32,000 nt of DNA from Clostridiales bacterium (GCA_029008095.1 JAQXJB010000025.1:34448-66447), one strand, 5' to 3'; shown: positions 1 to 31,466, numbered from the stretch's first letter. Notes: a model not told the origin generated them from the sequence alone. Translations and numbers: made by a program.

Positions 1-84
1 TAAATCCCTTTGGGGATTTGTGAAATTTGCTTCGCAAGTGAAATATGGCTTCGCCATGTGAAATGCCTGCGGGCGTGAGGGGGC
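1..84 (+). repeat. GTGAAAT-punctuated hairpin array, copy alpha (left end cut by the window edge)
   Basis: Hairpin AAATCCC/GGGATTT (2-19), GTGAAAT (20-26), hairpin TTGC/GCAA (27-37), GTGAAAT (38-44), hairpin ATGGC/GCCAT (45-57), GTGAAAT (58-64), GTGAGG (75-80). Bases 1-70 are 65/70 identical to 31192-31261. Confidence 0.8.
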
Positions 85-85
85 T

Positions 86-190
86 ATGTCATTCTGAGCC
101 CGCCGCAGGCGGTAGCGAAGAATCTCCGCACCAACGTGACTGCCAACATAAATCCAGCGCCGGAGATTCTTCACTGCGTTCAAAATGACA
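86..190 (+). repeat. ~100-bp TIR hairpin element, copy 1 (orientation A)
   Basis: ATGTCATTCTGAGCCCGCC...GCGAAGAATCTCCGCA...loop with ACTGCCAA...CGGAGATTCTTCAC...TTCAAAATGACA. Aligns with the copies at 5112, 5484 and 19983. Confidence 0.85.
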
Positions 191-260
191 CGGCTTTTAT
201 ATTTGCCCGTAGTGTCGTTTCCGCGAAAAATGTTAAATTTCACAAAAGCGGAAAAAACTC

Positions 261-289
261 TTGCAAAATAAAAACAGTTGTGATATATT
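261..289 (+). promoter_or_regulatory. Putative sigma-A promoter of the rimP-nusA-infB operon
   Basis: TTGCAA (261-266), a 17-nt spacer, then TATATT (284-289). Confidence 0.5.
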
Positions 290-317
290 AACAACGTAGT
301 ATAAGAGGTAAGCTATT

Positions 318-350
318 GGAGTGGGTCGCATGACCCACTCCTTTTGATTG
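318..350 (+). promoter_or_regulatory. Leader stem-loop with T-tract (terminator-like attenuator) upstream of rimP
   Basis: GGAGTGGGTC (318-327), loop GCAT, GACCCACTCC (332-341): a perfect 10-bp stem. It is followed by TTTTGATTG and lies between the putative promoter and the rimP RBS AAAGGAG. Confidence 0.5.
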
Positions 351-373
351 CGCGCCGGAAAAGGAGACTGCAA

Positions 374-5090: not shown

Positions 5091-5111
5091 TTTGCGCATA
5101 ACATAAAGAAT

Positions 5112-5216
5112 ATGTCATTCTGAGCCCGCCAACGGCGGAAGCGAAGAATCCCCGCAGTAAAGGAACTGCAAATGTAAACCTTCTGCGGAGATTCTTCACT
5201 TCGTTCAGAATGACAT
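5112..5216 (+). repeat. ~100-bp TIR hairpin element, copy 2 (orientation A)
   Basis: ATGTCATTCTGAGCCCGCCAACGGCGGAAGCGAAGAATCCCCGCAG...ACTGCAAAT...CTGCGGAGATTCTTCACTTCGTTCAGAATGACAT. Flanked by TA on both sides. Confidence 0.9.
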
Positions 5217-5234
5217 ATTTTTATATTTATCTGT

Positions 5235-5457
5235 ATTATCGTTTCTGCTGTAAAAACCGTTTTTGCCCGGCGGAGGCACGCCTCCGCCCTACATACCAAC
5301 GATAAGACTTACGGTATTTCGTAAGGCAGGGCGATTGCATGGGGAGTTAGGAGTTATTGAGCGTAGGGCGAGTACGTTCATCCTTCCGGATATCTCATTC
5401 GGTGGGCGTAGGGCAGGGGCGCGCCCCTGCCGTGCAGTAACAATACGCACAATGTAA
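5235..5457. repeat. REP/BIME-like cluster A
   Basis: Starts with the linker ATTATCGTTTCTGC. Unit GGCGGAGG-CACG-CCTCCGCC-CTAC at 5269-5292 (minus orientation). Unit GTAG-GGCAGGGGCGCGCCCCTGCC at 5408-5431 (plus orientation). Degenerate units at 5321 (GTAAGGCAGGGCG) and 5363 (GTAGGGCGAG). Ends with GTAACAATACGCACAATGTAA. Confidence 0.8.
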
Positions 5458-5483
5458 AAATAAAACATATTAACATAAAGAAT

Positions 5484-5588
5484 ATGTCATTCTGAGCCCG
5501 CCAACGGCGGAAGCGAAGAATCCCCGCAGTAACGGAACTGCCAATGTGAACCTTCTGCGGAGATTCTTCACTTCGTTCAGAATGACAT
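5484..5588 (+). repeat. ~100-bp TIR hairpin element, copy 3 (orientation A)
   Basis: Near-identical to copy 2, including the left flank AACATAAAGAAT and the right flank ATATTTTT. Lies 372 bp downstream of copy 2. Confidence 0.9.
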
Positions 5589-5643
5589 ATTTTTTTATGA
5601 TATCGTAAAAGAAAGGAGGGATAAGCGATCCCTTCATACAAGA

Positions 5644-11562: not shown

Positions 11563-11646
11563 TGGTATACCTCCCGAGATTTGTTTATGGGGATATTGTA
11601 TCATAAGGGAGGCCGTTTGGCAACGGGGGCGGATAAATGAAAAACA

Positions 11647-11750
11647 ATGTCATCCTGAACGCAGTGAAGAATCTCCGCAGGCGGTCGACATCGGCTGTCA
11701 AATCAATGCGGAGATTCTTCGCATCCGCCTGGGGCGGGCTCAGAATGACA
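11647..11750 (-). repeat. ~100-bp TIR hairpin element, copy 4 (orientation B)
   Basis: ATGTCATCCTGAACGCAGTGAAGAATCTCCGCAG...TGCGGAGATTCTTCGCATCCGCCTGGGGCGGGCTCAGAATGACA. This is the reverse complement of the orientation-A pattern. Confidence 0.9.
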
Positions 11751-11800
11751 AATCTTTAGGTTTTGCGTTTTAATTGTTATCTGGTACAAGGCTAAAAGTT

Positions 11801-11907
11801 ATGTCATCCTGAACGCAGTGAAGAATCTCCGCAGGTGGTTGACATCGGCAGACCAATCAATGCGGAGATTCTTCGCAACACGCTTTCAGCGCAGCTCAGA
11901 ATGACAT
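11801..11907 (-). repeat. ~100-bp TIR hairpin element, copy 5 (orientation B)
   Basis: Same arms as copy 4. The side hairpin here is CGCT-TTC-AGCG. TA flanks both ends. Confidence 0.9.
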
Positions 11908-11938
11908 ATTTTAGGTTATGCGTATCGCGCCCTTCCAA

Positions 11939-19850: not shown

Positions 19851-19931
19851 GCTTTCGCTCAGAATCTCCCAACTGACGGAACTGCCTATCTAAATCCAAC
19901 ACGGGAGATTCTTCCCGATGGTCAGAATGAC
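19851..19931 (+). repeat. TIR hairpin element, copy 6 (left terminus missing)
   Basis: GCTTTCGCTCAGAATCTCCC...GGAACTGCCTATCTAAATCC...CGGGAGATTCTTCCCGATGGTCAGAATGAC. Aligns to copy 7 except for the absent ATGTCATTCTGA end. Confidence 0.7.
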
Positions 19932-19982
19932 TTGACTTGGGGCTTTATCCGCAGTAAAGACCAAACGCAAAACCGAAAAACT

Positions 19983-20073
19983 ATGTCATTCTGAGCTTGC
20001 GAAGAATCTCCCATGTAACGTTACTGCCTATCTAAAACCAACCCCGGAGATTCTTCCCGATGGTCAGAATGAC
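19983..20073 (+). repeat. TIR hairpin element, copy 7 (orientation A, short variant)
   Basis: ATGTCATTCTGAGCTTGCGAAGAATCTCCC...TTACTGCCTATC...CCGGAGATTCTTCCCGATGGTCAGAATGAC. Confidence 0.85.
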
Positions 20074-20095
20074 GAGGAGTTTTACCTTAATTAGT

Positions 20096-20263
20096 ATTAT
20101 CGTTTCTGCGGCGGATATCAGAACAGGCGTGCAATGCACGCCCCTACGGTACGATGCCCCGGCGGAGGCACGCCTCCGCCCTACGTTTCATCCATATGCG
20201 TAACGGCAACTTCGTAGGGCAGGGGCGTGCCCCTGCCGTGCGGTAACGCTCCACACGATGTAA
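20096..20263. repeat. REP/BIME-like cluster B
   Basis: Starts with ATTATCGTTTCTGC. Units at 20126-20147 (minus; GGCGTGC-AAT-GCACGCC-CCTAC), 20161-20184 (minus; identical to 5269-5292) and 20214-20237 (plus; GTAG-GGCAGGGGCGTGCCCCTGCC). Ends with GTAACGCTCCACACGATGTAA. Confidence 0.8.
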
Positions 20264-20287
20264 CGACCAAACGCACAAGCCCCCCCT

Positions 20288-20346
20288 CTAACGTTACTGC
20301 CAATCTAACCCCAACACGGGAGATTCTTCCCGATGGTCAGAATGAC
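20288..20346 (+). repeat. TIR hairpin element, copy 8 (right half only)
   Basis: CTAACGTTACTGCCAATCTAACCCCAACACGGGAGATTCTTCCCGATGGTCAGAATGAC. Matches the right halves of copies 6 and 7. Confidence 0.7.
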
Positions 20347-20492
20347 AAAACCGAAAGTCTTGTACCATATAACGACACTATGAAAAAGCCCATCGTCCCG
20401 ACCTGCGGGCAAGCGGCGAGGATGGCAATGATCCTCCATGCGGGGGGATTTTTAATGACTATTTGTGCGGTGCTGCCGCATGGAGGAACGAT

Positions 20493-23743: not shown

Positions 23744-23771
23744 GCTGCTTCACATTTTGCGGAACATTACT

Positions 23772-23799
23772 GCACGGCAGGGGCGCGCCCCTGCCCTGC
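23772..23799 (-). repeat. Single REP-like unit between ispG and polC
   Basis: A perfect 20-nt palindrome GGCAGGGGCGCGCCCCTGCC lies at 23776-23795, followed by CTGC (the reverse complement GCAG replaces GTAG). It belongs to the same stem subfamily as 5408-5431 and 20214-20237. Confidence 0.75.
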
Positions 23800-27923: not shown

Positions 27924-28027
27924 ATGTCATTCTGACCGAAGGGAAGAATCTCCGCAGTCGGGTTTAGAGTGGCAGTCAAATCAGTGCGGAGATTCTTCGC
28001 ACACGCTTCGCGTGGCTCAGAATGACA
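27924..28027 (-). repeat. ~100-bp TIR hairpin element, copy 9 (orientation B)
   Basis: ATGTCATTCTGACCGAAGGGAAGAATCTCCGCAG...TGGCAGTCAAATCAG...TGCGGAGATTCTTCGCACACGCTTCGCGTGGCTCAGAATGACA. The side hairpin is CACGC-TTC-GCGTG. Confidence 0.9.
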
Positions 28028-28053
28028 AAACTTTAGAGTTTGCGTGTTATACG

Positions 28054-28188
28054 TTACATTCTTCGTGTCATTGCACGGCAGGGACGTGCCCCCCCCTGCA
28101 CGGTAATACGTTTTATCATTACATTGTGCATATTGTTATTGCGTTCCGGCGGGCGACACAATGGTCGCCCCTACGGTGTGATGACGCT
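28054..28188. repeat. REP/BIME-like cluster C (orientation reversed relative to clusters A and B)
   Basis: TTACATT...GCACGGCAGGGACGTGCCCCCCCCTGCAC (a degenerate unit at 28073-28103). A second TTACATTGTGCATATTGTTATTGC follows, then the unit GGGCGAC-ACAATG-GTCGCCC-CTAC at 28151-28174. Confidence 0.7.
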
Positions 28189-28389: not shown

Positions 28390-28465
28390 ATGTCATTCTG
28401 AACGCCGTGAAGGAGCTTCGCACCCGCCGTTACATTGGCAGTCAAATTACTGTGGGGGCTCTTAT
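28390..28465 (-). repeat. TIR hairpin element, copy 10 (degenerate, right terminus lost)
   Basis: ATGTCATTCTGAACGCCGTGAAGGAGCTTCGCAC...TTGGCAGTCAAATTACTGTGGGGGCTCTT. Aligns to copy 9, but the arms have decayed. Confidence 0.6.
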
Positions 28466-31159: not shown

Positions 31160-31178
31160 GTCATTCTGAGCCCGCCGC
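31160..31178 (+). repeat. Truncated left terminus of a TIR hairpin element (copy 11)
   Basis: GTCATTCTGAGCCCGCCGC is identical to the first 19 nt of copy 1 (88-106). The sequence then runs into the hairpin array. Confidence 0.6.
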
Positions 31179-31192
31179 TTTTCAAACGAAAT

Positions 31193-31411
31193 AAATCCCT
31201 TTCGGGATTTGTGAAATTTGCTTCGCAAGTGAAATACGCCTTCGGCGTGTGAAATGCCTGCTTATCGTGAGTGGCGCGCTTCACTTCCATTGTGCCGGGC
31301 ACAATACTTCACGGCGGCGCAGACGCTGCTTCACTTCCCGGCACAGCCGGGATACTTCACAAAAAAGCGTAAAAACATCGAAAGCACTTGCTGCTGCAGG
31401 TGCTTTTTCAC
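31193..31411 (+). repeat. GTGAAAT/CTTCAC-punctuated hairpin array, copy beta (complete); candidate structured ncRNA
   Basis: Three hairpins, each followed by GTGAAAT (31211, 31229, 31249). GTGAGT at 31267. The mirrored motif CTTCAC/ACTTCAC at 31279, 31306, 31329 and 31354 is interleaved with three more hairpins. The array ends in a 9-bp stem (31383-31404) plus TTTT. Confidence 0.75.
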
Positions 31412-31466
31412 TTTATTTCAGCCCGACTGGGAAATGTAAACAATTCATTACATTTTTTCCGGCGGA

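Follow-up and report, generated by a model that had tools for sequence, protein, structure and literature searches.

The window, a 32,000-nt stretch of DNA from a Clostridiales bacterium (GCA_029008095.1 JAQXJB010000025.1:34448-66447), holds two arrays of short hairpins, here called alpha and beta. Alpha lies at the left edge of the window, upstream of rimP, and beta lies close to the right end. The original prediction, made from the sequence alone, described them as two copies that differ almost only by compensatory base-pair swaps, with an element bearing terminal inverted repeats (TIRs) nested in alpha. Both copies are members of the Gut-1 family (Rfam RF01706), and we regard this membership, together with the anatomy listed here, as practically certain. 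Hairpins are numbered H0 to H7, and MITE stands for miniature inverted-repeat transposable element.

1–81, plus strand: copy alpha, Gut-1 array (short-hairpin arm), 5′ end cut by the window edge
Parts of alpha: H1 2–19; GTGAAAT 20–26; H2 27–37; GTGAAAT 38–44; H3 45–57; GTGAAAT 58–64; H4 GCCTGCGGGC 65–74; degenerate linker GTGAGGG 75–81
31160–31178, no strand assigned: MITE-end fragment TGTCATTCTGAGCCCGCCGC, in the usual place of the H0 terminator hairpin, abutting TTTTCAAACGAAAT of beta
31184–31273, plus strand: copy beta, Gut-1 array (short-hairpin arm), complete
Parts of beta: first linker ACGAAAT 31186–31192; H1 31193–31210; GTGAAAT 31211–31217; H2 31218–31228; GTGAAAT 31229–31235; H3 31236–31248; GTGAAAT 31249–31255; degraded H4 31256–31266; GTGAGTG 31267–31273
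31279–31360, plus strand: right (inverted) arm of beta, diverged; hairpins 31289–31305, 31314–31329 and 31337–31351; (A)CTTCAC linkers 31279–84, 31306–12, 31329–34 and 31354–60
31380–31415, plus strand: hairpin (31380–31407) and T-run, resembling an intrinsic terminator, closing the beta locus

Direct alignment and comparison of the repeat family placed alpha 1–70 against beta 31192–31261 without gaps and with 65 of 70 positions identical, exactly as had been claimed. The alpha positions that differ are 12, 46, 48, 54 and 56. Four of them make up two double substitutions that preserve pairing within a single hairpin (ATGGC-TTC-GCCAT at 45–57 versus ACGCC-TTC-GGCGT at 31236–31248); from alpha to beta, the pair 46/56 changes from T-A to C-G and the pair 48/54 from G-C to C-G. 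The remaining difference, at position 12, lies in the loop of H1 (TTTG versus TTTC). GTGAAAT occurs 11 times in the window compared to 3.1 expected, a number reached by none of 100 shuffles. The core observation is correct and goes far beyond chance. The two copies had been said to diverge right after the third GTGAAAT, but their homology continues through GCCTGC...CGTGAG.GG to about position 82. An RNA fold of alpha contains four hairpins (z = -3.5), and single-sequence folds of either strand, with RNA or DNA parameters, give the same hairpins. The right arm of beta has the architecture seen in the right arm of two-armed elements (see below), and its linker ACTTCAC reads GTGAAGT on the other strand. 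The arm lacks the canonical centre complement, GGATTTATTTC, and it is too diverged to be detected by our own covariance model (R1) at E ≤ 1e-3. We found no syntenic orthologue of the beta locus; synteny is lacking for the sole close flavodoxin-like homologue (locus L300, 85%).

A scan of the window with the Rfam models (cmscan) returned exactly two matches above the gathering score, both to RF01706 and corresponding to alpha and beta. Alpha scored 62.5 bits (1–69, model positions 9–77) and beta 78.1 bits (31184–31260, plus strand, full model 1–77); the curated gathering threshold is 50 bits. Model positions 1–8 are absent from alpha because the window starts there. R1 gave 92.6 bits for alpha and 98.3 bits for beta. 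Moreover, three consecutive hairpins with GUGAAAU between them could be read directly in both copies. As both exceed the curated threshold, they constitute a rediscovery of a catalogued family, and spurious matches are excluded because the stems covary. The element itself is already known, and a standard Rfam search annotates both copies.

Weinberg et al. 2010 (Genome Biol 11:R31, PMC2864571) introduced the Gut-1 motif on the basis of 43 copies, all from human gut metagenome reads. It was graded 'RNA: Y', i.e., certain RNA, on covariation, and neither host nor function was given. Beyond that publication, our literature search found no paper naming Gut-1 or RF01706. Nothing sets the copies in the window apart from Gut-1, with which they share the order [UGAAAU]-hairpin-GUGAAAU-hairpin-GUGAAAU-hairpin-GUGAAAU, covarying stems, and the gut habitat. 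When 18 related loci were scanned, 17 of them yielded 30 more Gut-1 matches above the gathering score. The original prediction had allowed for these two being the only copies, but hundreds exist in metagenome-assembled genomes (MAGs) of gut Clostridia. Hosts can now be assigned, namely Oscillospiraceae, Acutalibacteraceae, Ruminococcus, Christensenellales, and Akkermansia MAGs from the guts of many animals. Gut-1 is a multi-copy intergenic element of gut Clostridia, present also in Akkermansia. A phage origin was considered and rejected: only about 6 of 120 pattern matches in viral contigs were true arrays, at least four of them of the type adjacent to a transfer RNA (tRNA) gene or a terminator. 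The arrays are likewise not clustered regularly interspaced short palindromic repeats (CRISPR), which are defined by repeats of 23–50 nt and unique, non-palindromic spacers; here the repeat is 7 nt long and the 'spacers' are palindromes of 9–20 nt.

Collecting further copies made it possible to assess the pairing itself. A pattern scan of a species-representative genome collection returned 120 loci, of which 73 contained true hairpin arrays. R1 was built from 34 copies and gave 184 matches in 100 loci, and the best 150 of these 184 (148 distinct arrays) were aligned by fitting them to the model. In this alignment 95.4% of the cells are paired and 19 of 19 stem pairs have changed on both sides. 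The covariation score was 0.906, compared to 0.179 for column shuffles (0 of 500 reached the observed value) and at most 0.092 when the partners were slid by 1–3 columns. An alignment-free count agreed with these model-fitted values: in 198 distinct hairpin spacers between exact GTGAAAT linkers, 97% of the stem positions are Watson-Crick pairs. Since all 19 pairs covary and the alignment-free count concurs, we conclude that stem pairing is under selection. Both data sets bear out the proposal that the arrays are selected for pairing and are not neutral spacer DNA, and the covariation test suggested at the outset revealed a strong excess of compensatory pairs, with stem positions that do not vary independently. 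Each array consists of short, G+C-rich hairpins, free in sequence and kept in pairing, with a near-invariant 7-nt linker (GTGAAAT, or ATTTCAC on the other strand) between them.

Compensatory evolution could in principle be mimicked by functionless palindromes that are kept perfect through template-switch (quasipalindrome) correction at replication. One-step double changes are a known outcome of template-switch mutation, and wobble pairs in the stems are no commoner than other mismatches, as expected from such a process. However, it explains neither the invariant linkers nor the polarity of the loops, nor the constancy in unit number (four canonical linkers in 180 of 282 arrays, with a degenerate fifth in most). 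The fixed position and orientation behind tRNA genes and the persistence across bacterial families and in Akkermansia are left unexplained as well. We therefore consider this origin highly improbable.

At many loci, two arrays of inverted orientation stand about 30 nt apart. A scan keyed on the right arm identified 124 two-armed elements in MAGs, exclusively those of gut Clostridia; for 101 of the elements the flanks are complete. The left part of their consensus reads H0, ACGAAAT, H1, GTGAAAT-H2-GTGAAAT-H3-GTGAAAT-H4, GTGAGKGG, centre, and the right part ATTTCAC-H5-ATTTCAC-H6-ATTTCAC-H7-ATTTCAC, with the unit (ATTTCAC-hairpin) repeated three to four times. H0 is a long hairpin, mostly a terminator composed of an A-run, a stem, and a T-run. 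The RF01706 model covers the left (short-hairpin) arm, and the right arm is sometimes matched on the other strand. The motif catalogued in Rfam usually represents a single arm of a larger, two-armed inverted element, a finding beyond the 2010 description; single-arm arrays also exist.

The two-armed elements are closely associated with tRNA genes. Among the 82 elements with enough flanking sequence, 44 have a same-strand tRNA ending within 65 nt, representing 16 amino-acid specificities, and none has an opposite-strand tRNA; the orientation to the tRNA is always the same. A T-run directly precedes ACGAAAT in 62 of the 82. After the right arm, a crude scan detected a terminator in 47 of 87 two-armed elements.

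Constant orientation beside tRNA genes, inverted arms with subterminal repeats, and several copies per genome would all suit a non-autonomous mobile foldback element of the MITE type that targets the 3′ flank of tRNA genes and whose arms serve as binding sites of a transposase or integrase. The tandem duplications seen at three loci (L257, L258, and L004) and the juxtaposition with other MITEs are compatible with this idea. Yet every stem differs between copies, be they from one genome or from several, and the changes are compensatory, which argues for long residence rather than recent transposition. H0, too, varies from copy to copy. Neither a target-site duplication nor an empty/filled orthologous site was found, and within 400 nt of 185 arrays there was no recurrent neighbour that is a transposase, a recombinase, or similar to the tyrosine transposases associated with repetitive extragenic palindromic (REP) sequences (RAYTs). 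Taken together, we judge a mobile foldback to be very unlikely.

The location between transcription units, directly after terminators, and the symmetry of the two arms would also fit a bidirectional insulator or multi-terminator, in which the far arm, as a series of hairpins each followed by AUUUCAC, backs up H0 behind tRNA operons. Indeed, a terminator scan flagged single units, as well as H1 with ATTTCGTT, as terminator-like on the ATTTCAC strand. Judged by the definition of an intrinsic terminator (a U-run of about five or more), the array units do not qualify: depending on the strand they are followed by ATTTCAC, with three T's, or by GTGAAAT, and it is only the flanking H0 and the hairpin at 31380–31407 that agree with the definition. 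In addition to the AUUUCAC motif having only three U's, termination requires neither the strict conservation of GTG/CAC nor the existence of other linker families, and single-arm arrays point away from the upstream tRNA. An insulating function is hence improbable in our estimation.

A further property of the two-armed elements concerns their centre. In 92 of 109 elements, belonging to nine sequence types, the segment made up of GAAAT and the 5′ strand of H1 finds a perfect complement in the centre; this is the unbiased figure, as the alignment used to count H1–centre pairs (A2) was selected for complementarity. The 5′ strand of H1 has two alternative partners, since it is complementary both to its local 3′ strand and to the centre. 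An example is locus L034 (207–310), where GAAAT and the 5′ strand of H1 can pair locally or with the centre about 90 nt away, and all three segments covary. The two pairings look like a pair of mutually exclusive folds.

Two other roles for the centre and the arms were considered and rejected. Divergent promoters at the centre did not hold up, as the centre is about 27 nt long, covaries with H1, and showed no match to -10 or -35 boxes. Pairing of linkers between the arms, which would give a ladder of four-way junctions, appeared in some minimum free energy folds, but the linkers are too invariant for a test. It would also produce A·C mismatches on the plus strand at the ACTTCAC linkers of beta, and there are single-arm arrays and tandem arrays of the same sense. 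Because single-arm arrays exist, inter-arm pairing is not required for the family.

Besides GTGAAAT, other linker families were observed: GUGAUAU/AUAUCAC, ATATCGCT/AGCGATAT, and CGAGATT. Variants with GUGAUAU/AUAUCAC are included in the seed alignment of Weinberg et al. (PMC2864571). In a related Clostridia MAG (L125, 100–480), an array of like design upstream of rimP has the linkers ATATCGCT and an inverted arm with AGCGATAT(AGC). An Akkermansia sp. MAG (L004, 2300–3320) contains three tandem copies of a unit of about 440 nt, and the Gut-1 array of each unit exceeds the Rfam threshold. In units 1 and 2, the array with GTGAAAT linkers is directly followed by a same-sense array with (A)CGAGATT; in unit 3 the second array is not evident.

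The loops of the hairpins provide information about which strand folds. Of 198 loops, about 120 have the form C-T..C-G when the GTGAAAT strand is read (CTTCG 37, CTGCG 27, CTTGCG 12, and others). The complements of these loops are C-GAA-G, C-GCA-G, and C-GCAA-G, that is, GNA triloops and tetraloops of the GNRA type. The reverse polarity, with GNA/GNRA loops in the GTGAAAT sense, was found in only about 3 of 198 hairpins. For the mismatch counts, the reference was the strand on which the short-hairpin arm has GTGAAAT. The ratio of G·T to A·C was 3:7 in the short-hairpin arm and 24:8 in the inverted arm, which adds up to 31:11 in favour of the ATTTCAC sense. As a control, GNRA/UNCG loops of the H0 terminators were counted, and they lie on the tRNA strand in 17 cases and on the complement in 2; the loop bias of the arrays is thus not a genome-wide artefact. 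These data point to the ATTTCAC strand, opposite to the strand annotated by Rfam and read in the original prediction, as the strand that folds in both arms. Accordingly oriented, each DNA strand of a two-armed element would carry one loop-optimised arm. Minihairpins of the type d(cGNAg) are exceptionally stable in DNA. The low frequency of wobble pairs (below 1%) was considered as proof of a role at the DNA level and discarded, because G·T is just as scarce in the H0 terminators (1.1% versus 0.6–0.8%).

According to the reading implied by Rfam, Gut-1 would be a stand-alone small RNA (sRNA) of three to four hairpins in the GUGAAAU sense that acts in trans, for example as a protein sponge via its linkers. 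The grade 'RNA: Y' given by Weinberg et al. 2010 and the strong covariation of the stems speak for an RNA. So do the plus-strand terminator found in many cases behind the whole element and the single-arm arrays, whose end in this sense consists of GTTRAGGAAG, a hairpin, and a run rich in A/U. On the other hand, the H0 terminator abuts the 5′ end in 62 of 82 elements and leaves no room for a promoter. Furthermore, the loops would be UNC/UNNC, which have no known stability, whereas their complements are GNA/GNRA; A·C outnumbers G·U in this sense, and the inverted second arm is left unexplained. We consider such an sRNA unlikely.

We also looked at the genes next to the arrays. Within 400 nt of the 185 arrays, the sole recurrent protein family is a 115-aa four-helix-bundle protein, found at 14 loci. 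It matches PF05635 (23S rRNA intervening-sequence protein) and TIGR02436, and among solved structures it is closest to 2RLD, which contains five chains. The gene lies about 50 nt past the right arm, in the same orientation, in 13 of the 124 two-armed elements. A hidden Markov model search found 28 PF05635/TIGR02436 genes in 1448 kb of array loci compared to 0 in 997 kb of control loci, and most of the 28 are within about 100 nt of an array. Loci with the gene include L042 (1046–1393), L008, L208, L212, L249, L269, and L286, among others.

PF05635 proteins resemble Avd of diversity-generating retroelements (DGRs) (PMC10053308). For DGRs to recognise a target, a DNA hairpin is required whose stem is GC-rich but otherwise free in sequence and whose GRNA loop is strand-specific (Guo et al. 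2011, PMC3240598). Membership in a DGR was nevertheless rejected: at L042, the one locus read for this purpose, there is no reverse transcriptase by the PF05635 gene, which stands alone, with unrelated and convergent neighbouring open reading frames. The parallel between PF05635 and DGRs may serve as a lead and does not amount to membership.

Another reading is a structured repeat that acts at the DNA level, similar to REP sequences and bacterial interspersed mosaic elements (BIMEs) at operon ends. Its palindromes, extruded or in single-stranded DNA (ssDNA), would be bound by a structure-specific protein, with PF05635 as the candidate. The dominance of C-GNA-G triloops agrees with this possibility, as do the inverted arms with equal polarity relative to the linker, the multiple copies, and the fact that several MAG contigs end at or near arrays. 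The position behind terminators of highly transcribed tRNA genes and the enrichment of PF05635 nearby are further points in its favour. There is also a precedent in the hairpin/cruciform of DGR targets, where the structure and not the sequence of the stem matters (PMC3240598), and PF05635 is Avd-like (PMC10053308). However, no reverse transcriptase was found beside the PF05635 gene at L042, the one locus read, a recurrent transposase or RAYT-like neighbour is missing, the arrays have no REP-type GTAG box, and a cruciform would have to be extruded from stems of 4–7 bp, which is short. A transcribed unit would account equally well for the terminators on both flanks. A purely DNA-level repeat is conceivable, although we doubt it.

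Based on these results, we tentatively propose a more general mechanism, in which Gut-1 would be a single-stranded hairpin scaffold that presents its linkers to a binding factor. The element would act in single-stranded form, either as RNA or as extruded DNA or ssDNA. The hairpins would be rigid spacers displaying four to five identical 7-nt linkers, and the factor that recognises these linkers would be sequence-specific and probably oligomeric. As the active strand we predict the one that reads ATTTCAC and has C-GNA-G or C-GNRA-G loops; the inverted two-arm layout might then leave one arm active regardless of which strand is exposed or transcribed. That the linkers are the recognition units is suggested by their invariance while the stems vary, and by the alternative linkers of the subfamilies, which are used consistently in both arms. 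Their spacing varies (9–20 nt), so there is no helical phasing as on double-stranded DNA. A more specific version, in which Gut-1 forms a two-armed, strand-polar platform behind tRNA genes whose ATTTCAC-sense arm, as RNA or as extruded DNA or ssDNA, is bound at its four to five identical linkers by an oligomeric protein, with Avd-like PF05635 as the candidate (its relative 2RLD crystallised with five chains), is a long shot by our own reckoning. As a joint explanation of the locus, we give family membership and anatomy combined with the mechanism an even chance.

Several observations weigh against the scaffold and its preferred strand. The excess of G·T over A·C is based on 42 mismatches in related sequences. 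GNA and GNRA loops stabilise DNA and RNA hairpins alike, so the loops do not decide between the two. Promoter scans of the element flanks found no conserved promoter for either strand, and on the ATTTCAC strand the reading of the arrays would have to start at the centre and run outward, where promoters have no room. The PF05635 gene stands beside only about 10% of the elements and is absent from the window. Finally, the long-range complementarity of GAAAT/H1 and the centre hints at an alternative fold that a scaffold does not explain.

The remaining features of the window surround alpha and belong to a MITE-like family and to the rimP promoter region:

87–190, no strand assigned: MITE-like repeat with the TIRs TGTCATTCTGAGC...GTTCAAAATGACA, 104 nt, non-coding
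195–224, no strand assigned: second repeat module accompanying the MITE, not array; 80–83% identical to 5219–5248 and 20080–20109
235–298, plus strand: rimP promoter region, with the conserved upstream box AAATTTCACAAAAGCGGAAAAAAC followed by TTGCAA-17-TATATT
MITE-family sites in the window: 87–190, 5111–5230, 5483–5600, 11640–11765, 11794–11920, 19861–19947, 19966–20073, 20276–20362, 27924–28042, 28390–28463 and 31160–31178

The TIR element that had been placed after alpha is real, but it spans 87–190 and not 86–190. It is short, non-coding, bounded by TIRs, and multi-copy, as MITEs are; the 32 kb contain at least 11 full or fragmentary copies. It is flanked by GCTA and CGGC, without a clear target-site duplication. 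The proposed nesting within a resuming array did not stand up, as alpha lacks the whole right half of canonical elements. Alpha ends three bases past GTGAGGGG, at the MITE junction, where canonical elements continue with GGATTTATTTC-ATTTCAC... The supposed resumption of the array at 235–251 (AAATTTCACAAAAGCGG) has its orthologue in aaatttccacaaaagtggaaaaaac...ttgcaaaa, a sequence immediately preceding the rimP promoter. Three related Oscillospiraceae (L121, L122, and L123) have the orthologous sequence upstream of rimP and no array at the locus. The ATTTCAC at 237–243, which had been taken for an array motif, is a chance match, given that orthologues have ATTTCCAC. Because 195–224 is another repeat module (its relatives at 5219–5248 and 20080–20109 likewise come after MITE copies) and 235–251 is sequence upstream of the rimP promoter, the array is not continued after the MITE. 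Alpha is an element that lost its right arm at the MITE junction, and beta has a diverged right arm and a MITE fragment at the place of H0.

The nearest relatives (L121–L123; 88–91% RimP identity) have neither the array nor the 87–190 MITE copy at the rimP locus. A same-species contig with a MITE-free alpha was not found, as an exact 28-mer scan of metagenome contigs gave 0 matches, and an exact look-up of RimP for same-species sequence to the left of position 1 returned only a 631-nt contig, while NusA is absent from the records. The MITE family is very dense in the window. Its members have the TIRs TGTCATTCTGAGC...GCTCAGAATGACA, a length of about 105–120 nt, and an internal inverted repeat GAAGAATCTCC...GGAGATTCTTC. 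They occur in many of the intergenic regions, often together with a companion module of 30–40 nt. The same type of MITE is present in two related MAGs (L107 and L124), in L107 directly behind a Gut-1 array.

We also examined a cis-regulatory role for rimP-nusA-infB and rejected it. None of 80 rimP loci (±4 kb) contains an array, so alpha is no leader element of rimP, whose promoter moreover is found on the downstream side of alpha. The rimP leader itself (window 299–373) contains a terminator-like hairpin, GGAGTGGGTCGCATGACCCACTCCTTTT (315–344), downstream of TTGCAA-17-TATATT. This hairpin is common to all related rimP loci that were read, and owing to this conservation it may be an attenuator of the rimP-nusA-infB operon. 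Separate from the arrays, the window contains REP-like repeats with GTAGGG and a G+C-rich palindrome (e.g., CGTAGGGCAGGGGCGCGCCCCTGCC) at 5407–5430, 20213–20236, 23771–23795, and 28072–28092. Such repeats also occur upstream of rimP in L121–L123, and their form is that of REP elements recognised by RAYTs.

Compared to the Gut-1 description of 2010, our analysis adds the hosts, a two-armed inverted element tied to the ends of tRNA genes, and a loop preference for the opposite strand. If the annotated strand is wrong, this changes how metatranscriptomes are searched for Gut-1. The non-random adjacency of the Avd-like PF05635 gene provides a concrete candidate for a binding partner; binding by PF05635, if true, would give this orphan family its first defined nucleic-acid ligand outside DGRs.

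Among known systems, REP sequences and BIMEs of enterobacteria and pseudomonads resemble Gut-1 in being palindromes that occupy, in many copies, the intergenic DNA behind transcription units; they often form clusters of inverted units with short conserved motifs between the units, and they are active as folded single strands. However, REP palindromes are conserved in sequence within each genome, begin with a 5′ GTAG, and are recognised by RAYTs, whereas Gut-1 stems are free and the 7-nt linker is conserved. With stems that are not conserved in sequence and no GTAG, the arrays do not belong to REP/BIME. The target hairpin of DGRs (PMC3240598) likewise has a GC-rich stem in which pairing and not sequence matters, and a strand-specific G..A loop (GRNA). 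It is, however, one hairpin of 7–10 bp downstream of a variable repeat (VR), accompanied by a template repeat (TR) and a reverse transcriptase, while Gut-1 consists of arrays of 4–7 bp hairpins with mostly triloops; no reverse transcriptase was seen at L042, the one locus read, and VR/TR repeats were not searched for. The protein-sponge sRNAs CsrB and RsmZ share with Gut-1 the display of many copies of a short motif on a hairpin scaffold. They differ in that their GGA lies in hairpin loops and they have clear promoters and terminators, whereas the Gut-1 motif is the linker between hairpins and no promoter is evident. Like Gut-1, the BOX elements of Streptococcus pneumoniae, with their modular boxA-(boxB)n-boxC structure, are intergenic, present in many copies, and predicted to form stable hairpins. 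Unlike Gut-1, BOX modules keep their sequence and show no link to tRNA genes, and the two families have no sequence similarity.

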